From Patescibacteria group bacterium (GTDB lineage Bacteria > Patescibacteriota > Minisyncoccia > Phycocordibacterales > UBA918): a stretch of DNA of 64,000 nt. Position 1 is the first letter of the stretch, and each line of letters opens with the position of its first letter. The notes under the pieces are model-generated. The model did not search any database. It saw nothing but the letters and a program-made list of their open reading frames with translations, and was not told the DNA's origin. The position numbers and the translations under genes were made by a program. Location: assembly GCA_040386275.1 (NCBI GenBank), contig JAZKFU010000008.1, forward strand, positions 6,853 through 70,852, read 5' to 3'. Of the stretch, positions 25,173 through 42,314 are shown in pieces.

Positions 25173-25183
25173 GATTTTATATG

Positions 25184-25506
25184 CTCCCCGGGCAGGATTC
25201 GAACCTGCGACCAATCGATTACACGTATTCATGCGTTACTGCATGGGTGGACTATATCATCACCGGTCACATTATTGTGCTGACGGTGCAAGGCGCTTCG
25301 AAAGTTTTCACTTCCTACTCCCGTTAGGGATAGTCTCTGAACCTTCAATTGGATTTCTCCAAAAGCTTGGCTGCTGATTGCCCTGGCTTGCGCCGTGGGG
25401 GTTCCAGCAATTCACCTTGTTTGCAATATCGATTTCTCGATAAGGCTGCTATTTTGAACATTGTTCAATGTTACAGTCGACTGCTCTACCGCTGAGCTAC
25501 CGAGGA
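25184..25506 (-). tRNA. tRNA-Asn(GUU) interrupted by a 251-nt group I intron (exon 1 = 25506-25473, exon 2 = 25221-25184)
   Basis: Minus strand: TCCTCGG-TA-GCTC-AGCGGTA-GAGC-A-GTCGA-CTGT | intron | TAA-TCGAT-TGGTC-GCAGG-TTCGAAT-CCTGC-CCGGGGA-G. All stems pair; the spliced anticodon loop CTGTTAA and discriminator G match bacterial tRNA-Asn. Confidence 0.8.
25222..25472 (-). ncRNA. group I (IC3-like) self-splicing intron in the anticodon loop
   Basis: Contains P (GAATTGCTGGAA), Q (AATCAGCAGCC), R (GGTTCAGAGACTATCC) and S (GATGATATAGTCC) core elements; IGS GCAG pairs with exon CUGU giving U:G at the 5' splice site; intron ends in G. Confidence 0.8.
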
Positions 25507-31546: not shown

Positions 31547-33445
31547 TTATACGATGCGGTCGGGGTTGATGGTGATGGCTACATACGGCGGCACATGTCG
31601 CAACGTGTCTATCAAATCTTTAGTATCTACACTCGGGTCAAGCCGAAGCAAACAATGCCGTAATTGCTCTTTGGCTTTGGAGTGCGGGTTGGTGTAAAAC
31701 GAGCCGGTAAGATTGTGCATGGCGAGCATCTTTTTAATTACTGCTTCGGTCTCAGTGATAACCGTAGCGTTTCCTTGCCAGGAAAAGAAAATAAACTTGG
31801 CAAACGGTGGATACTTGAGCATTTGTCTGAGGGCAATCTCATCATCATGAAAACGGTCTACTGCAGCGCGAGAGGCGTATATAAGTAAGTCATCGGTCTC
31901 GCTACGCGTTTGAATCATTACTTCGCGACTACTGTGTTCGCGAAGTTCTAAAATCATACGAAATACTGTCTCGTCGGCTCGCCAGGAGGGAATTGCGCGC
32001 ACCGCGTCGAGGGATACAATAGCCGACATACTAATGTTGGTTGGGATATAGGGCATGACCATCTGCGTGCCCAGTAAAATTGCCCCTTTTTGTTTTTCAA
32101 AATCTTTTGTCAGTTGGGTTGCGCGTTTGTGAGTGGTCGCTGTCGTGTGGTCAAAAATAGTGAGGGGAGTTTTGGGAAATACTTTGCGGCACTCATCTTC
32201 AACTTGTTGGATACCAATCCCACGTTCACGCAATCGCCAAGAACCACATTGAGCACACACATCAGCAGCCCGAACTCGTTTGCCTGAGGTGCTTGAGACA
32301 AACCATCGTTCTTCAACGTGTTCTTTGTTTAGGGTACGCAAAAGTGAGTAGGGTGTACCTGAATCAGGACAGCGAAAAATATACCCACAGTCAACACACG
32401 CAACAACTGGTGCGAGGCCGCGCCTCGCAGCAAATAAAAATACATTGTGCCTGCCTTCGAGAGTAGTTTCTATGCGCTTAATCAGTTCCGGCGAAAATAA
32501 TTGAAACGGAATATCGTTTTTAGGTTTATCGGTTTGATTGATGATGGTTAATTTCGCGGGGAGCTCGAGACGAATGGGATGTTCACCAAAAGTCTGGTAG
32601 ATATCATTTCTTCGTTTGTATTCATCTTCAGTAGCGATAAGTGTGTCACCTAAAATAATGCTGCGTTTAGTGATAGCAGCTAAAGTTTTAAGGACGGCAC
32701 GGTGGTCAAGGTGCGGTCGCGTTCGCATTACGTAATGTGGACTGGCGGCATTTTCCATAATGATGGTTGTGCTGTCGGCTCGTTCCAAATAGGCAAAGCT
32801 CGGAGTGGCGATAGTGAGGGTGGCGTGGGTGAGGTCACCAAAGGCCGTGTACGCTCGTTCACGTTCTTTTTTGGTTTGGTGGCTTGAGAAACAAATGACG
32901 CGTTCGCTAATGCCTCGTTCGAGCGCCCGTTTCATTGTATCGACGGCAGTACTTGTTGGTACAACAAGCAGGACTGATCCGCGGTGGGCAAATGCGCTAC
33001 GAATTATAGTTTGGTACTGAATGATACGGTCACCTTCACTAGCACAGAGAATTTGGGGCGTGCTATCTTCGTTGTTTATTTCATTAAGGGGAGTGCTGGG
33101 GTATGGGGCGACTCCTGTGCGGATATCAGGTGGTAAAAGACTAAATAAAATCGCTCCTCGTTTGGAAGGATTTTCAGTATACAGTTTGTCGACGGTAGCG
33201 AGTAAGCTTGGCGCAATTTTTTGGACGTCTTTTTGTTCCGGAAGTTTCCGCAGAGAAAAGGTAGCCGCTTTAAGCGCCGTTTTAGTGGTGGAAACAGCTT
33301 TGCCGTCGACGACAATGCCGCGAATAGTCTTGCCACGTACCGGAATGGCTATAATTGAACCCACATCATAGTTGGTGCTGGAAAAATACGATAAGGACTC
33401 AATTTGGATACCGCGAACGAGAGGAATTACTTCAATAACAAACAT
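31547..33445 (-). CDS. priA: primosomal protein N' (PriA helicase)
   Basis: Helicase core (LLVVPTSTAVD…), Cys-rich zinc-binding insert (CVDCGYIFRCP…CAQCGSWRL), C-terminal domain. Confidence 0.85.
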   Translation of the reverse strand: MFVIEVIPLVRGIQIESLSYFSSTNYDVGSIIAIPVRGKTIRGIVVDGKAVSTTKTALKAATFSLRKLPEQKDVQKIAPSLLATVDKLYTENPSKRGAILFSLLPPDIRTGVAPYPSTPLNEINNEDSTPQILCASEGDRIIQYQTIIRSAFAHRGSVLLVVPTSTAVDTMKRALERGISERVICFSSHQTKKERERAYTAFGDLTHATLTIATPSFAYLERADSTTIIMENAASPHYVMRTRPHLDHRAVLKTLAAITKRSIILGDTLIATEDEYKRRNDIYQTFGEHPIRLELPAKLTIINQTDKPKNDIPFQLFSPELIKRIETTLEGRHNVFLFAARRGLAPVVACVDCGYIFRCPDSGTPYSLLRTLNKEHVEERWFVSSTSGKRVRAADVCAQCGSWRLRERGIGIQQVEDECRKVFPKTPLTIFDHTTATTHKRATQLTKDFEKQKGAILLGTQMVMPYIPTNISMSAIVSLDAVRAIPSWRADETVFRMILELREHSSREVMIQTRSETDDLLIYASRAAVDRFHDDEIALRQMLKYPPFAKFIFFSWQGNATVITETEAVIKKMLAMHNLTGSFYTNPHSKAKEQLRHCLLRLDPSVDTKDLIDTLRHVPPYVAITINPDRIV

Positions 33446-33557
33446 TATGATCAGTATAGCATTTTTGCCATTTAATTTTTTTGGTATTATTGGTAGATAT
33501 TCAAAGTGAAATATTGACGTACTTGGGTGTAATATTTTATAATAAAACAGTGATCAG

Positions 33558-33992
33558 TTGAGCATATCCAGGGAAAAGGAGTACATAATGCCCTTAGCGT
33601 CACGTCTTGTCAGCAATCGCAATCAAGTTGCAGTTGGAGAAATCCTGATTGCTGTTGAAGCCAATAACTACCAATTATCTGTTACTACCCTATTGGTTTC
33701 AAAAATTCCGTCCATATACGATTTTAACGGCCCATACTTTTTTTGTAGCTTAAATAAACATTATAAGTTTATTGACTACAATCTTCCTCCGAATAACTAT
33801 AATCAGAATTCCTTGTGGCGTTTTTCATTACCTATATGGCGAAACTTACAAGATTTACAGATGCGAGGAGAGTCGGGGTACCAACTATACCTCCGCGCGC
33901 TCACTGATTGTCGGCAGGGACGCATACCAATAATGTCTGAAGAAACTGAACAAAACCCCACTGATAAGATGCTGTCCGGGGTAGATGCTTAA
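33558..33992 (+). CDS. hypothetical protein (weak)
   Basis: AT-rich ORF between two minus-strand genes; could be non-coding. Confidence 0.2.
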   Translation: MSISREKEYIMPLASRLVSNRNQVAVGEILIAVEANNYQLSVTTLLVSKIPSIYDFNGPYFFCSLNKHYKFIDYNLPPNNYNQNSLWRFSLPIWRNLQDLQMRGESGYQLYLRALTDCRQGRIPIMSEETEQNPTDKMLSGVDA

Positions 33993-33999
33993 ATAAAAA

Positions 34000-34031
34000 A
34001 CGGACATCGTCACTGATGTCCGTTATTTTAT
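34000..34031. terminator. bidirectional terminator aaaaAACGGACATCgtcactGATGTCCGTTatttt
   Basis: Perfect hairpin directly 3' of murA. Confidence 0.65.
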
Positions 34032-35540
34032 TTAAAATTCGTCTAGATATTTTATATCCGCTCCTAAGGAAGCGAGGCGGGCTACTAGATTTTCATAACC
34101 CCGATTGATACTGTAGATGTTACGCAAGACCGAGCGACCAGAACCACCAAGCATCGCGATGAGAAGAATTGTTGCAGGACGCAGAGCGGGCGGACAGATA
34201 AGCTCGGCTGATTTAAGTGGGGTCGGGCCCGTAATGTAAATACGGTGCGGGTCCGCCAAGACCGTGTCCGCTCCAAGTTTCTCGAGTTCAGTAAAATAGA
34301 TGGCTCGCTTTTCATACATCCAATCGTGAATCAGGGTTTGGCCCGAGGCTTGAGTAGCAATCACCGCAAAGAAGGGGAGGTTGTCTGCGTTGAGTCCCGG
34401 GTACGGGCGAGAGTGAACTTTTTCTGGTGAAGCTACTAATTTGCTTGGTTTGATTTTTAGGTCCACCAACTTGGTGTATCCATTTACTGCCAAGTACGGT
34501 TTGGAGGTTGAGTATTGCAAGCCCATTTTTTCCAGCACCAACAGTTCTAGTTCTAAAAACTCAATCGGTGCGCGAGTTATGGTGACTGCTGAGTTAGTTA
34601 CAATCGCTGCTGCGATAAAGAACATACTATCGGTTGGATCTTCTGCTAAGGTGTATTCAATATCTGTATGGATGTCGGCCACCCCGGTGACAGTTAAGGT
34701 GGTAGTCCCAATACCTTCAATCTGTACGCCAAATAGTTTAAGAAAGACACAAATTTCTTGCACCATGTAGTTAGCACTCGCATATTTAATCACCGTTGTG
34801 CCTTCATGTAAGGCTGCGGCAAATAAAACATTTTCCGTAACCGTGTCACCTGATTCATAAAGAATAATTTCAGTCGGTTTTTTTACGTCAGTTGTGACTT
34901 TAAATTCTTTTTCGGTTGTCTCGATGTGCACGCCATAATGTTCAAGCGCGTAAAAATGAGGACGAACGGTCCGACTACCCAATTTACATCCACCAGACTG
35001 TGGGAGACTAAATGAAGACATCTTGTGAATCAGTGCGCCGATGAACATGACGATGCTGCGGGTTTTTCGCGCGGCTTCAACATCAATTTTTTTGAGGTCA
35101 AACTTTTTTGGGGGTGTAATGGTGATGGTGCTACCGGTCCAGACTATGTGCATCCCGATACTTTGCAGTACCTCGATGATTCGGTGTACTTCTTCTATGC
35201 GGGGCATACGATGGAGGGTAGTCACGCCACGGTTTAATAACGAAGCACACAATAGGCCGACAGCGCCGTTTTTACTGGTATTGGTTTCAATGGTACCGGA
35301 GAGTTTTTTGCGTCCGTTAATTTCAACGTTCACCGTGCCAGGTGAAAGGGTAATTAGATTTTTACCTAACGCTACACCAATTTTTTTTAACATCTCAGCA
35401 CTGATATTTTGTGTGCCTGATTCTAAACGAGCGACGGCACTTTGGGTGGTTTTTAATTTTTTAGCCAGTTGGGTTTGCGTAAGGCCGACGGATTCTCTTA
35501 AATCTGCAATTCGATTTCCAATATTTTCCATAGTTCTCAA
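34032..35540 (-). CDS. murA: UDP-N-acetylglucosamine 1-carboxyvinyltransferase fused to an N-terminal XRE-type HTH domain
   Basis: Residues 1-62 (…IADLRESVGLTQTQLAKKLKTTQSAVARLESGTQNISAEMLKKIGVALG) are a Cro/C1 HTH. The remainder is MurA (INGRKKLSGTIETNTSKNGAVGLLCASLL…LPQSGGCKLGSRTVRPHFYALEHYGV with the catalytic Cys). Single uninterrupted 502-aa ORF. Confidence 0.85.
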   Translation of the reverse strand: MRTMENIGNRIADLRESVGLTQTQLAKKLKTTQSAVARLESGTQNISAEMLKKIGVALGKNLITLSPGTVNVEINGRKKLSGTIETNTSKNGAVGLLCASLLNRGVTTLHRMPRIEEVHRIIEVLQSIGMHIVWTGSTITITPPKKFDLKKIDVEAARKTRSIVMFIGALIHKMSSFSLPQSGGCKLGSRTVRPHFYALEHYGVHIETTEKEFKVTTDVKKPTEIILYESGDTVTENVLFAAALHEGTTVIKYASANYMVQEICVFLKLFGVQIEGIGTTTLTVTGVADIHTDIEYTLAEDPTDSMFFIAAAIVTNSAVTITRAPIEFLELELLVLEKMGLQYSTSKPYLAVNGYTKLVDLKIKPSKLVASPEKVHSRPYPGLNADNLPFFAVIATQASGQTLIHDWMYEKRAIYFTELEKLGADTVLADPHRIYITGPTPLKSAELICPPALRPATILLIAMLGGSGRSVLRNIYSINRGYENLVARLASLGADIKYLDEF

Positions 35541-35618
35541 AATATAGCATATCTGCTATATAGCATCAAAATATAACATGGTGGAAAAGTAGCGGGGATG
35601 ATACACTAGGTACCTTAT

Positions 35619-36632
35619 ATGTTCGAGAGATTTACTCCAAAAATTGGTATCGATTTGGGAACTACCAATGTTTTAGTGTTTGTACCTGGTCAGGGGATTG
35701 TATTAAATGAACCATCGGTCGTGGCCGTAGGAGAAAATAATCAAGTTCTGGCGGTAGGAGTTGAAGCTAAGCGTATGATTGGGAGAACACCTGAGAGTAT
35801 TAAGGCCTACAGGCCAATGAAAGACGGTGTCATCGCTGACTATCGCGTGACGGAGGCGATGTTACGGTACTTTTTGCAAAAGGCCCTCAGTAAATACAAT
35901 ATCTTTAAACCAGATGTGATGGTATCGGTTCCCGCGGGAGTAACATCAACAGAAAGACGAGCGGTAGTTGAGGCCACGATTAAAGCTGGTGCTCGTAATG
36001 CGTACGTGGTGAAAGAACCTATCCTCGCAGCGATTGGTGCGGGTGTACCGATTTATGAGCCCCAAGGGCACATGATTGTTGATATTGGTGGTGGAACGAT
36101 TGACGTGGCGGTGATTTCGCTTGGAGGGATTGTAGCTGCTAACTCGGTGAAGTGTGCGGGGAATCGGATTGATGCAGCGATTATTAACTTTGTGAAAAAA
36201 ACGCGGAACCTATCAATTGGTGAAAAAACTGCTGAAGAAGTAAAAATTAAGGTTGGTTCGGCGTTACCCTTGGAAGAAGAGCTCGTGATGGAACTAAAAG
36301 GACGAGATGTGTTTACGGGACTTCCGCGAACTACCGAAATTAAAACCAATGAAGTTGTGCGGGCAATCGCCGTTGAATTACGCGAAATGATTAAAGCGAT
36401 TAAAGATGTGTTTCAAGATACGCCACCCGAGTTAGCTTCAGATATTATTGATGGCGGAATTATTATGACTGGTGGGACTTCTCAATTACGAAATTTTCCA
36501 GAATTAGTAAAACGCAGGACAGGAGTGAAAGCGCAGTTGGCGGATCAGGCGTTGTTTTGTGTGGTGAAAGGGACTGGCGTGGCTCTGGAGCATTTAACTA
36601 CCTACAAGCGAGCTATTTTGACTAAAAGGTAG
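35619..36632 (+). CDS. mreB: rod shape-determining protein MreB (paralog 1)
   Basis: IGIDLGTTNVLVF, actin-fold phosphate and adenosine motifs (DIGGGTIDVAVIS). Confidence 0.9.
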   Translation: MFERFTPKIGIDLGTTNVLVFVPGQGIVLNEPSVVAVGENNQVLAVGVEAKRMIGRTPESIKAYRPMKDGVIADYRVTEAMLRYFLQKALSKYNIFKPDVMVSVPAGVTSTERRAVVEATIKAGARNAYVVKEPILAAIGAGVPIYEPQGHMIVDIGGGTIDVAVISLGGIVAANSVKCAGNRIDAAIINFVKKTRNLSIGEKTAEEVKIKVGSALPLEEELVMELKGRDVFTGLPRTTEIKTNEVVRAIAVELREMIKAIKDVFQDTPPELASDIIDGGIIMTGGTSQLRNFPELVKRRTGVKAQLADQALFCVVKGTGVALEHLTTYKRAILTKR

Positions 36633-37061: not shown

Positions 37062-39830
37062 ATGTTCGAGCGTTCATCAAAACAATTTGCGTCGCCAGAG
37101 GAGGAAGTGCAATATTTGCGCGAGCGGATTGCGGTGCGCGAACGAGAAATATTAGGACGGACAACGGAAGTTGATCACGCTGATTACGAAACCATTGCCA
37201 AACAAGAGTTACACGACTATGGCATGTTTACACCCAAGGTTATTCTAAATCCCGACCACGCGTTAACTGATCATGAAGTGGCGTCTCATAAAGAAGCACT
37301 CATCACCAGTCGGGACCCGGCTGAACAAATCGTGCAAGTTGCCTTTGAAAAGGGAATTCGCAATGCGCTAACGCTTTTGGAAAAAGTATCCAACCCCTTT
37401 GTGATTGATGAAGTGCATCGGCAATTAATTGAACACATAAAACAAGGGCAAACGGTCCAAGATATGAAAGAAGGGGTACCACCCTGGGGCATATTACACA
37501 TGACGCTGTTTGAAGTGACCTTGCCCGAACTTAAGGGAGTGAATGATAAAGAGTATCAACTAGCTGATTTGGTGGGGATGATGGAGCAGTTGTTTGCGGG
37601 TATGCGCAGTATTGCACATACCGATACCCGTAATACTTTTGTGTTTGAAATTGCGGTGGCTGACAATAGTGATGACATTATTTTTTATACCGCGGTACCA
37701 ACGCAGTTCGTTACCTTGTTTGAAAAACAAACTTTGTCCCTATTCCCGCATGCCGTAATTATCGAACAGCTCCATGACTACAATATTTTTGTACCTAATG
37801 GTACGAGTATTATTGCTGATGTCACCTTAGAGAAACATCCCATTTATCCATTACGCAGTTACGATCAATTTAGTGCTGATCCACTCAATGTAATTTTAAA
37901 TGCTTTTTCAAAAATCGAACGCGAAGGAGGAGGTGCGGCGATGCAATTTATTGTCCGGTATCCAAAAAACGATTACCGTAAAACGTATTCCGAAATATTA
38001 AAGAAAGTGCAAAAAGGCACCAAGCCAAAAGAAGCCATTGCGCGCAGTACGATTGGTGGCGAAATCGGAGCGTCGGTTTCTGAGTTGTTTTTCTCTAAAC
38101 CAAAAAAAGAAGGGGAGTATGAACCACCAAAGGAAGTAGATACTGAAGCGGTAGAATTATTCTCTAAAAAAATTACGAGTCAGATAGTCGAAACTAATAT
38201 TCGGATTGCGGTTTCAGCTACCGTGCCTCACCGAGCTGGTCAAATCATGTCTGAGCTTGCCGCCACCCTGCATCAATTTGCGACGGTTGATAGTAACCAG
38301 TTTGTCATTACTGAACGAAAGGGAACTGCTCTTAAGGTAGCCGAGAAAGCATTTTCATTCCGAGAATTTAATCCTAAAGTCACCATTCCGTTGTCCTTGA
38401 CTGAATTATCTACCATCATGCACTTTACGGGTAATGGTATCTCAACGTCGCCACAATTTAAACAATCAGGCGCCCTGACCGCAGCTGCACCAACTGAAAC
38501 TCCGACCGAGGGGACTCTGCTTGGGATAAACAAACACCGCAACTTGGAGAAGAAAATATTTATGACCGAGAAGGACCGCATGCGCCATTTCTACGTCATT
38601 GGGCAAACCGGTACCGGTAAGTCAGTGTTTTTGAAAAACCTCATTACACAGGATATTTTGCGCGGGGACGGAGTCTGTATGATTGATCCGCACGGGACTG
38701 ATATCGTTGATATATTAGGAGCAATTCCACCGGAACGAGAAAAGGATGTGATTTATTTTGATCCCTCTAATTTGGATATGCCAATTGGGCTTAACATGTT
38801 GGAGTACGACCAAAACAAGCCCGAGCAAAAGACGTTTGTGGTTAATGAGTTGTTTTCAATTTTCCAAAAGTTATACGGTGGCAACCCAGAATCAATGGGT
38901 CCAATGTTTGAACAGTATTTCCGAAATGCGACGTTACTCGTGATGGAAGATCCCGATTCAGGAAATACCTTAATGGATATTTCGCGCGTAATGGCAGACG
39001 CCAAGTACCGTCGAATGAAATTAGAGAAAGCCAAAAATCCAGTGGTGGTGCAATTTTGGCGTGAGATTGCAACCAAAGCCGGTGGGGAGGCATCGCTCGA
39101 AAACATTGTGCCGTACATCGTATCTAAATTTGATGTGTTTACCGCCAACGATTACATGCGTCCAATTATTGGCCAGCAAAAATCAGCGTTTAATTTCCGT
39201 GAAATCATGGATGAGAAAAAAATTCTTCTCGTGAATCTTTCTAAAGGACGATTGGGTGAGATTAACGCTAACTTAATTGGGATGATAATTGTCGGCAAGC
39301 TGTTGATGGCGGCGTTGTCTCGCGTAGATAATGAAGCGATGGATTTCCCACCGTTTTATTTACACATTGATGAGTTCCAAAACGTATCAACACCGTCAAT
39401 TGCCTCAATTTTGTCTGAAGCGCGCAAGTACAAATTAAGTCTCACCATGGCCCATCAGTTTATTGCTCAGCTTGATACTGATATTAAAGATGCGGTGTTT
39501 GGTAACGTAGGCTCTATAGCGTCATTCCGAATTGGTTCAGATGACGCGCAGTTTTTAGAGAGTCAATTTGCTCCCGTATTCCAAGCATCAGATTTAATGC
39601 AGGTACCTAATTACAACGCGATGATTAAAATGCTCGCTAATGGTACGCCAACTAAACCGTTTAGTTTAGCCACGATGCCACCGTTTACCGCCAATAGTAG
39701 TAAGGTGGCCGAACTTAAATCTCGTTCAGCACAACGGTATGGACGCCCGAGAGCCGAAGTAGAAGCTGAAATTGACGCTCGCTATGTGAAAGAGCCACTG
39801 TTGCCACCACCACTTAGTGGTATGATGTAG
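37062..39830 (+). CDS. VirB4/TraC/TraG-superfamily (type IV secretion-like) P-loop ATPase, 922 aa
   Basis: Walker A GQTGTGKS, Walker B LHIDEFQNV, C-terminal ARKYKLSLTMAHQFIAQLD (RKY…Q motif of T4SS ATPases); about 500-aa N-terminal domain without homology I can name. Confidence 0.55.
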   Translation: MFERSSKQFASPEEEVQYLRERIAVREREILGRTTEVDHADYETIAKQELHDYGMFTPKVILNPDHALTDHEVASHKEALITSRDPAEQIVQVAFEKGIRNALTLLEKVSNPFVIDEVHRQLIEHIKQGQTVQDMKEGVPPWGILHMTLFEVTLPELKGVNDKEYQLADLVGMMEQLFAGMRSIAHTDTRNTFVFEIAVADNSDDIIFYTAVPTQFVTLFEKQTLSLFPHAVIIEQLHDYNIFVPNGTSIIADVTLEKHPIYPLRSYDQFSADPLNVILNAFSKIEREGGGAAMQFIVRYPKNDYRKTYSEILKKVQKGTKPKEAIARSTIGGEIGASVSELFFSKPKKEGEYEPPKEVDTEAVELFSKKITSQIVETNIRIAVSATVPHRAGQIMSELAATLHQFATVDSNQFVITERKGTALKVAEKAFSFREFNPKVTIPLSLTELSTIMHFTGNGISTSPQFKQSGALTAAAPTETPTEGTLLGINKHRNLEKKIFMTEKDRMRHFYVIGQTGTGKSVFLKNLITQDILRGDGVCMIDPHGTDIVDILGAIPPEREKDVIYFDPSNLDMPIGLNMLEYDQNKPEQKTFVVNELFSIFQKLYGGNPESMGPMFEQYFRNATLLVMEDPDSGNTLMDISRVMADAKYRRMKLEKAKNPVVVQFWREIATKAGGEASLENIVPYIVSKFDVFTANDYMRPIIGQQKSAFNFREIMDEKKILLVNLSKGRLGEINANLIGMIIVGKLLMAALSRVDNEAMDFPPFYLHIDEFQNVSTPSIASILSEARKYKLSLTMAHQFIAQLDTDIKDAVFGNVGSIASFRIGSDDAQFLESQFAPVFQASDLMQVPNYNAMIKMLANGTPTKPFSLATMPPFTANSSKVAELKSRSAQRYGRPRAEVEAEIDARYVKEPLLPPPLSGMM

Positions 39831-39836
39831 GTATTT

Positions 39837-42314
39837 ATGGAGCGACAGCCGACTGTAATTCGTCCCAACATTGTGTCTTCTGAGGCTTTTTTGCAGCCTC
39901 CGGTGAATAATGAGCGAATTGAACCCCAAGCAATTGATCCAGCCTACCCACGGTACGAAAAAACTACTACAGAAATACTGCCCACCATCCCAACTAAAAT
40001 TGTTCCCATTATTCCAGAAAATATTGTAGTGATGGATGCGTCATTACAAGCGCTCAAAAAATTTATTGATAATCCGGTTACGGCCGAAGAAATTCCCAAC
40101 AAAGAAGCATTTATGCGGAATGTTTTTCCATGGATTGTTAACGCGCTTTCAAACGCCGAATATGATGCTGCCGGAATTGATGCATTTTTAAAGCAATCAA
40201 TTGATACGATTGATTTTCACGCCCCAACCGAAAAATATTTACATGATATCAACCGAGTGTTACAAAATATCTGGAAGCAGGTAGTGGTAGAAAAAGGAGC
40301 TACACCGCATGAGGTACGACCGGTAGTGCCTGTTAGTGAACCTTTACTGCTTACGAAAAAGGAACAAGTACAAGATATACTTGTTTCAAGTGGCCCAATG
40401 GTAGAAAAGGTTGATGCAAGCAAAGTGTCCAGCGCGACTACAAAAGCGTTTGAGAATACATTAGAATCTTTGGATAGCGAGCCGTTTAATCGAGAAGCGT
40501 ATTTGCAGTTTGTGTATGAAGTACATACGTCACTTCGTGATCGGTATGATGCGGTAACAAAAAGTGCTCAACAAAATCTCAAACGGTATAGCGAATTTTA
40601 CACACCTTCACCAACCGAAAAAGAAGCGTTACAGTTTTTGTCTACCCTTAAATCACAGTATGTACGTTTGCAGTCAAAAAACTCGCTTTTGGGAGTTACG
40701 CGCGCTGAAGTAATGAATAGCTTAAATAAAACTGATGGGTTTACCAAAGAAGACGAGGTGAAAACATTTATCCATGATTACCTCGCGGGGACAGAAAATT
40801 TGTTTACCAGTATTGAACGGCTCGAAGCAATGATTGAGTCGGCTAAAGGAGAAGAAAAGCCAGCCTTGGGCGAGGCGTACCGCACCCAGTTTGAAAGTTT
40901 GCGTGTTGCCGGTGAAAAAATTCTCACCACGTTACCTACCAGTCATCCACTGTATAACGATTTTAAAGTAGTAGTTGAAAAAGGGATAGGGGATTTAATT
41001 ACGGCCGCGGCCGTAGAAAATAACGGAGACAAAGCAGTCCTCGAGCGTTCATCATATTTTATAATTTTGCGTGACCGGGTAAAAGCATCTATCGCGTATA
41101 TTCAAGCGGAGCAAGAATTTGAAAACTTTAAACAACGACAACTTCGGTTAGTGCAAACATTAGAGTCGTCCCTAACGGCTGGCACCGAAATGTTACCGCA
41201 AGAAAAGGTAGTGCTTAAAAAAACAATTCTTGAAAATATTGAAAAGATTAATCATGCGCTTACTAAAGCGGGTGCCTTGCCCGCGGGCGCCAGTTTGTTG
41301 TCATTATCGCAATCAACTCTAGAGAGCGCCACAAAAGACTTTGCGACTGAACGTGAACAAGTGAAGTTGCTGTTGGGTGAAACAAAAGAAATCCTGAAAG
41401 AATTACAAAACGATACATCGTTATTGATGACTACCGAGTCACCAGATACAGAGAAAGTGAGTGAGTCAGTGCCAGAGCCAACTCCAGTAGTAGACGCCAT
41501 ACTAGTGCCGTTACATGAACGTTCGCAAAGGTACGCATCGGAAATTTCTGAATCGGCAGTTAGTCGTGACCGTTTACGTCAAATCCGCTCACTTTTTAAA
41601 CCAGCGCGTATCGGGATGTTGGCTCTTGTAGCCGCTGCGTTTGGTTCAGATCAATATAAACCAACTAACACTAATGGGGGAGCATTATCACTTTCTACGT
41701 TAATGGGTGTATCAACTTCCGCTATCACCCCGGAATTATCGCTTGATAGAATGGCGATTGAAGAATTTTTAAAGCATGCAACGCAATCTAAAGAAGAGGT
41801 ACAAGGAAACGTTGACAGTCTGCCGTTGGTAGAAATTCCTAAGCTGACATCGATACCTGAAGTGACTGAAGAAGTGCCGGGGGTAGTGTTGCCTTCTACG
41901 GTGTATTCTGTGCCTGAAGCAAATATTCCACGGGAATTAAAAATATTTGGTGCAGCTGACACGATACCGTTTGACCCGAAAATGAGTTTTAATTCGCCAA
42001 CCCAATCAGAACAAGGAGCGATGTATACCGAAAAAGACTTTCATACCCTACAGTACGGCGATATATTTTGGGATATTAGTGAAGGCGAGACGCTTGCCGG
42101 GACGTTGCCGGTAATGAAGCAAATCAATCCTTATTTTAAGCAGCATCTGATTGATCGTCTGCGAGATCGAATCAACAAGAGTCCTGAATTACGTAAAAAA
42201 ATTGGTGGCTTTGGCGATACCGCTAATGAATTAGTTACCGGAGCACGTATGAATCTCAAAGTCCTTAATGAAGAGTTTACGATAGAAGCAGTTAACGCGG
42301 GTTATTTACAATAA
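39837..42314 (+). CDS. large hypothetical protein (825 aa), mostly alpha-helical with one probable TM segment
   Basis: Starts 7 bp after the ATPase gene; coiled-coil-like; hydrophobic stretch ARIGMLALVAAAFG. Confidence 0.55.
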   Translation: MERQPTVIRPNIVSSEAFLQPPVNNERIEPQAIDPAYPRYEKTTTEILPTIPTKIVPIIPENIVVMDASLQALKKFIDNPVTAEEIPNKEAFMRNVFPWIVNALSNAEYDAAGIDAFLKQSIDTIDFHAPTEKYLHDINRVLQNIWKQVVVEKGATPHEVRPVVPVSEPLLLTKKEQVQDILVSSGPMVEKVDASKVSSATTKAFENTLESLDSEPFNREAYLQFVYEVHTSLRDRYDAVTKSAQQNLKRYSEFYTPSPTEKEALQFLSTLKSQYVRLQSKNSLLGVTRAEVMNSLNKTDGFTKEDEVKTFIHDYLAGTENLFTSIERLEAMIESAKGEEKPALGEAYRTQFESLRVAGEKILTTLPTSHPLYNDFKVVVEKGIGDLITAAAVENNGDKAVLERSSYFIILRDRVKASIAYIQAEQEFENFKQRQLRLVQTLESSLTAGTEMLPQEKVVLKKTILENIEKINHALTKAGALPAGASLLSLSQSTLESATKDFATEREQVKLLLGETKEILKELQNDTSLLMTTESPDTEKVSESVPEPTPVVDAILVPLHERSQRYASEISESAVSRDRLRQIRSLFKPARIGMLALVAAAFGSDQYKPTNTNGGALSLSTLMGVSTSAITPELSLDRMAIEEFLKHATQSKEEVQGNVDSLPLVEIPKLTSIPEVTEEVPGVVLPSTVYSVPEANIPRELKIFGAADTIPFDPKMSFNSPTQSEQGAMYTEKDFHTLQYGDIFWDISEGETLAGTLPVMKQINPYFKQHLIDRLRDRINKSPELRKKIGGFGDTANELVTGARMNLKVLNEEFTIEAVNAGYLQ

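Follow-up and report, generated by a model that had tools for sequence, protein, structure and literature searches.

The DNA analysed here is a 64,000-nucleotide (64-kb) stretch of a Patescibacteria group bacterium (contig JAZKFU010000008.1), referred to throughout as the window, and its minus strand carries a gene that joins an XRE/Cro-type helix-turn-helix (HTH) domain to a complete UDP-N-acetylglucosamine (UDP-GlcNAc) 1-carboxyvinyltransferase, MurA, which is targeted by fosfomycin and catalyses the committed step of peptidoglycan synthesis. An open reading frame (ORF) without interruption spans 34032..35540 and would encode 502 amino acids (aa) if begun at a TTG codon, but translation more probably starts at the ATG at 35531 and yields a 499-aa form beginning MENIGNR: orthologues begin M-x-x-IG, and the TTG lies immediately next to the predicted -10 hexamer (35541-35546). 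In the 502-aa form Pfam recognises HTH_3 at residues 11-62 (E 2.3e-13; score 50.4 bits, cutoff 23) and EPSP_synthase at residues 75-488 (E 2.9e-45, profile positions 2-416 of 417), and the window holds exactly one such HTH and exactly one MurA/EPSP homologue. The original prediction, that an XRE HTH is fused to a full-length MurA with an apparently intact active site, is thus borne out by Pfam for both domains and by their conservation among relatives; the N-terminal region passes an HTH profile search, and both motifs quoted there are present, the recognition helix TTQSAVARLES and the Cys loop SLPQSGGCKLGSRTVR. The cutoff of the NCBIfam MurA subfamily model PRK09369 is passed (310.6 bits versus 297) and that of the strict equivalog model TIGR01072 is missed (303 versus 392.7 bits); given that unfused MurA proteins from candidate phyla radiation (CPR) bacteria, encoded beside the inactive fused copies described below, likewise score above the former and below the latter, the low score points to a divergent subfamily. 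An AlphaFold2 (AF2) model built with 54 homologues has a mean predicted local distance difference test (pLDDT) of 89 and a predicted template modelling score (pTM) of 0.84, and comparison with solved structures returned none that spans both the HTH and the MurA domain.

The 120 best database relatives are 77-96% identical to the window protein, and none differs from it in length or lacks either domain; their contigs reach 1.09 Mb. Fused representatives down to 30% identity, and unfused relatives of up to 57%, are found in a library clustered at 50% identity, and at least 553 fused relatives were confirmed among GTDB species-representative genomes, which hold one genome per species. The comparative work on loci rests on the best 80 of these (L001-L080), which come from Paceibacteria (Kaiser-, Taylor- and Zambryskibacteria), Saccharibacteria (Nanosynbacter, Saccharimonadales) and cultured Actinomycetota; some of the 'Saccharibacteria' labels, on binned assemblies that cluster with Paceibacteria, look generic and untrustworthy. 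The actinobacterial carriers include many Streptomyces as well as Nocardioides, Nonomuraea and Knoellia, with 54-56% full-length identity and a native guanine-plus-cytosine (GC) content near 70%. Across the family the GC content of the fused-gene loci spans 29-73%, and the protein keeps a size of 499-509 aa in hundreds of independent assemblies, isolate genomes included. The suggestion that the fusion could be a lineage marker holds to the extent that it is typical of Paceibacteria and Saccharibacteria, and fails in that it is common in Streptomyces and further Actinomycetota as well. The architecture is already in public databases under automatic annotation: the Streptomyces orthologue falls into a cluster that holds 4337 sequences at 90% identity, and NCBI names it either 'helix-turn-helix domain-containing protein' or 'UDP-N-acetylglucosamine 1-carboxyvinyltransferase', with no dedicated curated family. 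No published description of the fusion, its operator or its inactive derivatives was found, and subscription-only papers may hold one.

In the AF2 model the HTH consists of four helices (residues 4-15, 19-26, 30-38 and 45-55), and the nearest solved relatives of its profile are the DNA-binding XRE proteins SinR, HipB, C.BclI and the 434 repressor. HTH_3 matches 22 of 22 sampled family members; T28, Q30, S31, A32, R35, E37, G39 and N42 are invariant in both family alignments, and within the first 62 residues 17 do not vary in an alignment of eight sequences whose members are 28-53% identical to the window protein. Between clades, identity is 0.48-0.64 in the HTH, 0.54-0.62 in MurA and 0.18-0.36 in the linker, and to judge from the alignments selection on the HTH is as strong as that on the enzyme. 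The best NCBIfam match of the HTH is the Y4mF antitoxin model TIGR03070, at 33.8 bits and below its cutoff of 71.65. The linker, KNLITLSPGTVN, is flexible in the model and of low confidence over residues 56-67, with pLDDT below 50 at residues 61-64; its first residues keep an alternating hydrophobic pattern, and a similar pattern is seen by eye in the C-terminal tail of the small XRE proteins that share the operator (below), outside a BLASTP match that ends at residue 59.

The MurA half aligns end to end with solved MurA structures (best 5ujs, E 1.4e-49) and is modelled at pLDDT above 90 over its body (residues 68-499), with low values at residues 182-184, where the Cys loop is flexible. Against the E. 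coli sequence, which was verified at the key positions, residues K22, N23, R91, C115 and R120 correspond to K87, N88, R158, C182 and R187 of the window protein, and D305, R331, R371 and R397 to D383, R409, R451 and R477. All nine of these catalytic or substrate-binding residues are kept in 81 of 81 fused proteins of the catalytic type, and the position of E. coli D369 is Pro across their whole clade. The enzyme half is by its sequence intact and looks active, which is argued from the fact that the residues are perfectly kept here and decayed wherever a second murA is adjacent.

Upstream of the gene lies a perfect 6-4-6 palindrome, ATAGCA-GATA-TGCTAT as read on the minus strand, which ends 12 nucleotides (nt) before the ATG and whose symmetry extends to 35542-35561; the exact form ATAGCA-N4-TGCTAT occurs once in the window. 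This predicted operator takes up the spacer of a promoter-like site and reaches into the extended -10 box (Table 1). Given that only 9 nt separate the -10 box from the ATG, the murA transcript is probably leaderless or nearly so. In this genome an extra half-site abuts the operator, forming a second, overlapping palindrome (TGCTATATAGCA), so that three half-sites stand in a row and the extra one is a possible third half-site. A further site within the HTH coding region scores 9/10 and is found at the same position, in codons for QNIS-x-E-M, in L020, L025 and L029-L080. The rare Leu codon CTT that makes its TGAGAT half occurs without exception in 32 Streptomyces and Nonomuraea orthologues, where CTT accounts for 1.5% of the Leu codons elsewhere in the same genes and neighbouring synonymous positions vary; this intragenic site may be an auxiliary operator. 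A candidate second operator at 33456-33471 (ATGGCA-AAAA-TGCTAT, minus strand, 9/10), which sits 10 nt before the start of a 632-aa gene (31547-33445), was rejected as probably a chance likeness on an extended -10 box, because the orthologous loci have only the -10 box there.

Operators were scored in 77 orthologous loci as ATnnCA-N4-TGnnAT with symmetric inner bases within 120 nt upstream of the gene. The site was perfect in 52 loci and reached at least 9/10 in 66, as compared to a background of seven perfect sites in 930 kb elsewhere, four of which are the same upstream site with the start codon placed too far upstream. In most lineages the gap from operator to ATG is 11-13 nt, such that the -10 box begins in the right half-site and the same leaderless, or nearly leaderless, arrangement is probable there. 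The half-sites differ by lineage (Table 1), both changing together such that dyad symmetry is kept even in Streptomyces with 70% GC, and the left half-site is conserved although no promoter function attaches to it. The change is accompanied by one in the recognition helix: residue 29 is Thr (TTQSA) where the half-site is ATAGCA and Ser (TSQSA) where it is ATATCA, a switch that occurs once inside the clade of the window itself (L009). Four unfused relatives, with MurA 45-57% identical, have no site of 9/10 or better and no HTH gene upstream, and one of them keeps TGCTATACT, the -10 half, and has lost the left half. The palindrome is read as the site of the HTH, and not just as part of a promoter, because of the conserved left half, the co-variation with the helix, the unfused controls and the antitoxin-like cassettes described next. 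Autoregulation through the intergenic region 35541-35618, which had been proposed from the window sequence, is by this comparative evidence strongly supported: the operator lies in that region, is conserved in three lineages, co-varies with the helix and is missing upstream of unfused relatives.

A search of metagenomes for the exact 18-mer TATAGCATATATGCTATA gave 80 loci (L088-L167), in which the palindrome occurs in many uncultured bacteria, typically between a TTGACA box and a start codon. Only four of these lie before HTH-MurA genes, and the notion that the 18-mer is specific to murA promoters was rejected on that ground. In 52 of the 80 an XRE protein that matches the HTH profile of the window protein is encoded within 900 nt, and these proteins are mostly small (90-170 aa) and antitoxin-like. 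Some of the small genes come right behind the palindrome, which is itself immediately preceded by TTGACA, and others lie behind a Gp49/HigB-like first gene. Their recognition helices read TTQSAVARIE, TTQSVIARME and TKQSVISRLE, and one of the proteins is 56% identical to the HTH of the window protein (BLASTP, residues 12-59). Type II antitoxins classically repress their own promoters. The presence of the same helix and the same site in an unrelated architecture suggests a joint capture of HTH, operator and promoter as a single cassette, and by sequence comparison the HTH and its operator were probably taken together from a self-regulated, antitoxin-like XRE cassette.

A sister clade of rare, divergent fused proteins (P0132, P0133, P0304, P0143 and others) has lost the residues equivalent to R91, C115, R120, R371 and R397 and scores below the MurA cutoffs, at 167-235 bits. 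These catalytically dead proteins keep the HTH, and the operator is present in five of five loci with examinable promoter sequence. It lies between the -35 and -10 elements; in L083 a consensus TTGACA directly precedes it, and in L085 it stands between TTGCAA and TATAAT, before an operon of NUDIX, sugar-1-phosphate nucleotidyltransferase and HTH-pseudoMurA genes, of which the nucleotidyltransferase could be assigned neither to MurU nor to GlmU. In L081-L084 the dead fused gene is divergent beside a canonical unfused murA (437-438 aa, above the cutoff), and murB, Mur ligase and Ddl genes surround the pair; the closest relatives of this unfused MurA among the matches listed are from Collierbacteria and WWE3, which are other CPR groups, and all are unfused. 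By their sequences and settings, the proteins of the dead clade look like dedicated regulators of cell-wall precursor genes, and their position beside a murA-murB cluster, with the operator, fits a regulatory role of the architecture.

When the MurA domains are placed in a neighbour-joining tree, the fused proteins form a single group, with the dead clade at its base on long branches and the actinobacterial proteins (L029-L080) nested among those of Saccharibacteria (L018-L063). Saccharibacteria live as epibionts on Actinobacteria, and this nesting, in a distance tree only, suggests gene transfer between the epibionts and their actinobacterial hosts. In Streptomyces the fused gene has an MmyB-like regulator on one side and ROK and major facilitator superfamily transporter genes on the other, and because of these neighbours it is taken to be a further murA paralogue. 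Its identification with SCO5998 (MurA2) was rejected, since SCO5998 adjoins aconitase and has a different promoter. Streptomyces coelicolor is reported to have two other MurA enzymes (PMC12161575).

The gene divergent from murA is mreB (Pfam MreB_Mbl, E 7.7e-128), across an intergenic region of 78 nt in which 60 nt separate the operator from the start of mreB. Outside the closest Paceibacteria (L001-L012) this arrangement is not kept, being absent from type-2 Paceibacteria, Saccharibacteria and Actinomycetota. Downstream, a convergent 134-aa gene (33588-33992, plus strand) shares a bidirectional terminator with murA; it has no Pfam match, its ribosome-binding site (AAGGAG) is strong, and its promoter at 33514-33543 (TTGACG-18-TATAAT) is close to consensus. 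An Rfam search around murA, run at a permissive threshold, found no RNA element, the one miRNA match being meaningless. Beyond mreB, 37062-42314 (plus strand) encodes a VirD4/TraG-like coupling ATPase of 922 aa and, after it, an ORF of 825 aa without a Pfam match; the ATPase is kept beside mreB in related Paceibacteria (L004, L006 and L007) and may belong to a type IV secretion-like apparatus of Patescibacteria. Elsewhere in the window, ARAGORN places a tRNA-Asn(GTT) at 25183-25506 (minus strand), whose anticodon loop is interrupted by an intron at 25229-25467 that Rfam recognises as a group I intron of 251 nt (RF00028, 79.9 bits); under default tRNA search settings the whole 64 kb yielded no tRNA.

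Table 1. Features of the HTH-MurA locus and of related loci. Positions refer to the window except in rows that name another locus.
Feature	Position	Strand	Description and basis
HTH-MurA fusion coding sequence	34032..35531	-	499 aa plus stop, ATG 35531-35529; ORF list, Pfam, NCBIfam, full-length orthologues
XRE/Cro-type HTH, residues 3-56	35364..35525	-	Pfam HTH_3, AF2 helices, nearest solved relatives
Recognition-helix region TTQSAVARLES, residues 28-38	35418..35450	-	Invariant columns in family alignments
Linker KNLITLSPGTVN, residues 57-68	35328..35363	-	Low conservation, low model confidence
Complete MurA (UDP-GlcNAc 1-carboxyvinyltransferase) domain, residues 69-499	34035..35327	-	Solved-structure alignment, AF2, residues
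Catalytic Cys loop SLPQSGGCKLGSRTVR, residues 175-190, with Cys182 and Arg187	34962..35009	-	Alignment to E. coli and solved MurA
Promoter-like site	35541..35569	-	-35 TTGATG at 35569-35564, 17-nt spacer, extended -10 TG-n-TATATT (-10 at 35546-35541); consensus scan
Predicted operator, perfect 6-4-6 palindrome	35544..35559	.	ATAGCA-GATA-TGCTAT (minus-strand reading); inverted repeat I3
Second overlapping palindrome TGCTATATAGCA	35554..35565	.	From extra half-site 35560-35565; read from sequence
Operator-like site in HTH coding region, possible auxiliary site	35392..35407	.	ATATCA-GTGC-TGAGAT, 9/10
Bidirectional intrinsic terminator hairpin after murA stop	33999..34024	.	Terminator scan, both strands
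mreB	35619..36632	+	Pfam MreB_Mbl; divergent from murA
Half-sites, Paceibacteria clade of the window			ATAGCA-N4-TGCTAT
Half-sites, other Paceibacteria and Saccharibacteria			ATATCA-N4-TGATAT
Half-sites, Actinomycetota			ATCTCA-N4-TGAGAT
Dead-clade locus L081	4275-11518
Dead-clade locus L082	95-6201
Dead-clade locus L083	7532-14295
Dead-clade locus L085	6686-9554

Taken together, the comparative sequence evidence indicates that the gene product is probably a bifunctional, self-repressing MurA, that is, a 'trigger enzyme' with an XRE DNA-binding domain. Two HTH domains, as a dimer, would bind the 16-bp dyad ATAGCA-N4-TGCTAT, in which the centres of the half-sites are 10 bp, one helical turn, apart. 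As the protein accumulates, its presence on the dyad would block RNA polymerase and so repress, rather than activate, its own synthesis, which would keep the committed step of peptidoglycan synthesis under homeostatic control; in the clade of the window, the divergent mreB would possibly be affected too. It is a more speculative proposal that binding of substrate or product to the MurA domain (UDP-GlcNAc, phosphoenolpyruvate (PEP) or UDP-N-acetylmuramic acid (UDP-MurNAc)) modulates DNA binding. A bolder form of the proposal, which is tentative and the less favoured option, is that the MurA fold serves as the allosteric sensor of an unrecognised family of transcription factors reading the UDP-sugar/PEP state: the working MurA of Paceibacteria and Saccharibacteria would couple its occupancy to self-repression, the sister clade would have decayed into a repressor of the murA-murB-mur ligase cluster, and the module would have moved between Saccharibacteria and their actinobacterial hosts.

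Several considerations weigh against a self-repressing MurA. The orthologous loci are phylogenetically related and the operator counts are not independent, amounting to about four lineage-level observations in addition to the antitoxin cassettes, and the loci were collected by means of the HTH motif, hence all are fused by construction. The right half-site doubles as the extended -10 element, and therefore part of its conservation is promoter conservation; promoter geometry of the leaderless type is, furthermore, common in these genomes. MurA enzymes are generally described as monomers, so that the HTH module or the DNA must bring about dimerisation. Finally, given that Streptomyces has two other MurA enzymes in addition to a fused copy with all catalytic residues, conservation of these residues is no proof of a housekeeping role.

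A rival possibility is that in the genome of the window the protein is a regulator only, with the MurA-fold domain acting as a ligand sensor and a separate, unfused MurA performing catalysis. The canonical murA beside the dead sister clade, the Streptomyces fused gene that comes on top of two other MurA enzymes and the score of the window protein under the strict TIGR01072 cutoff are all in keeping with such an arrangement. Nevertheless, this scenario is unlikely, given that the nine catalytic and substrate-binding residues, the Cys among them, are retained throughout the catalytic-type proteins and have decayed in the clade with a neighbouring murA, and that no second MurA/EPSP homologue is present in the window or within 6 kb at any of the 80 loci. 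To this may be added, as a weak argument, that none of the 120 closest listed relatives of the unfused CPR MurA lies on a large contig equal in length to those that carry the fused gene, and the expectation that redundancy is improbable in such small genomes. A different role for the N-terminal domain is also conceivable, in that the HTH could be a fusion relic that now supplies no more than a promoter and a folded N-terminal tag, the palindrome being a promoter element or the site of another factor. The coincidence of the right half-site with the extended -10 box and the occurrence of the palindrome at many unrelated metagenome promoters would be accounted for in this way, but the explanation is quite improbable: recognition-helix residues are invariant over members that have diverged to 28-53% identity, the left half-site is conserved and co-varies so as to keep the symmetry even at the high GC content of Streptomyces, an unfused relative retains the -10 half and not the left half, the unrelated promoters with the palindrome mostly lead to HTH proteins of the same subclass, and the fused gene is the sole gene common to all loci.

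RodZ binds MreB through an XRE-like HTH (cf. PMC9804626), and with mreB as the divergent neighbour in the window and its closest relatives, the HTH might be imagined as a similar protein-protein module that tethers MurA to MreB filaments and does not contact DNA. This is very improbable, since the HTH of the window protein has no Pfam HTH_25 match at E 0.1, and HTH_25 is found in only 10 of the 22 sampled family members (best 7.5e-4), as compared to HTH_3 in all 22 at 7e-18; moreover, type-2 Paceibacteria, Saccharibacteria and Actinomycetota keep both HTH and operator without linkage to mreB, and a conserved, co-varying palindrome would be left unexplained. Least credible of all, and with no point found in its favour, is that the gene is an artefact of assembly or sequencing or that the HTH anchors the enzyme non-specifically to the nucleoid. 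An artificial joining of two genes, named in the original prediction as one of its refuting conditions, is ruled out by the equal length and the two domains of the 120 best relatives, which come from independent samples, and by the same architecture in hundreds of assemblies, among them isolates of Streptomyces, Nocardioides, Nonomuraea and Knoellia; the nucleoid tethering put forward there as an alternative to autoregulation finds no support in a site that is specific and has a single exact copy in 64 kb. A MurA that represses its own gene remains the probable account of the locus.

If this is correct, an enzyme equipped with a repressor domain and an operator of its own would constitute a new, minimal form of regulation of cell-wall precursor supply, and a self-repressing MurA would suit CPR bacteria, which are poor in regulators. 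The family would furthermore preserve the stages of a passage from enzyme to regulator, namely an unfused enzyme, a fused active enzyme and a fused dead enzyme beside a separate enzyme, and the presence of the same protein and operator in genetically tractable Streptomyces and cultivable Saccharibacteria makes the proposal directly testable. The controls of MurA described to date are proteolysis by ClpCP with ReoM, ReoY and PrkA in Firmicutes, activation by CwlM in mycobacteria and feedback by UDP-MurNAc (PMC7286690, PMC8959180, PMC4946905). They share with the fusion the adjustment of flux through the committed peptidoglycan step; however, they are post-translational and act through partner proteins or metabolites, whereas control by the fusion would be transcriptional and built into the enzyme.

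Among regulators with an HTH, several resemble the window protein in part. BzdR of Azoarcus likewise consists of an N-terminal HTH_3, a linker and an enzyme-derived domain, a shikimate-kinase-like sensor, and the NCBIfam model of BzdR-class regulators, PRK08154, matches the HTH of the window protein (E 6e-8); however, its enzyme-like domain is a sensor only, whereas the window protein keeps every catalytic residue, and BzdR controls a catabolic operon and not cell-wall genes. It is the best analogue of the dead sister clade. The ROK repressors NagC and Mlc (sugar-kinase fold) and MocR and GabR (aminotransferase fold) offer a precedent for the coexistence of active enzymes and HTH-fused regulatory relatives, although the folds and HTH classes are others and the fused members are regulators only. 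The antitoxins of Gp49/HigB-like cassettes (HigA/Y4mF/HipB-like) share with the window protein 56% HTH identity, the helix TTQSAVAR(I/L)E and the 18-bp palindrome, but measure about 90-170 aa, frequently have a toxin gene as partner and carry a toxin-binding tail, whereas the window protein has an enzyme as its partner and no Gp49-like neighbour; with TIGR03070 below its cutoff, and mreB and the convergent 134-aa gene as neighbours, it does not fall among the type II antitoxins. RodZ has in common with it an XRE-like HTH in a cell-wall context, and mreB is adjacent in the clade of the window, but the window protein differs in having no HTH_25 signature, no transmembrane segment (MurA follows the HTH) and no general linkage to mreB.

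The closest functional parallel is provided by BirA (biotin ligase), PutA (proline dehydrogenase) and NadR, each of which, like the window protein, combines a DNA-binding domain and a metabolic enzyme in one polypeptide. In these proteins an operator at their own or their pathway's promoter allows the level or state of the enzyme to feed back on transcription, and the same is proposed for the window protein by inference from sequence. The known examples join winged HTH or ribbon-helix-helix domains to other enzymes, whereas here an XRE HTH is joined to the enolpyruvyl transferase fold, and ligand control is proven for BirA and PutA, whereas for the fusion it is a speculative proposal. To our knowledge no trigger enzyme is known for peptidoglycan synthesis, and on this comparison the HTH-MurA fusion is most likely a new example of the trigger-enzyme principle, placed at the committed step of the pathway.

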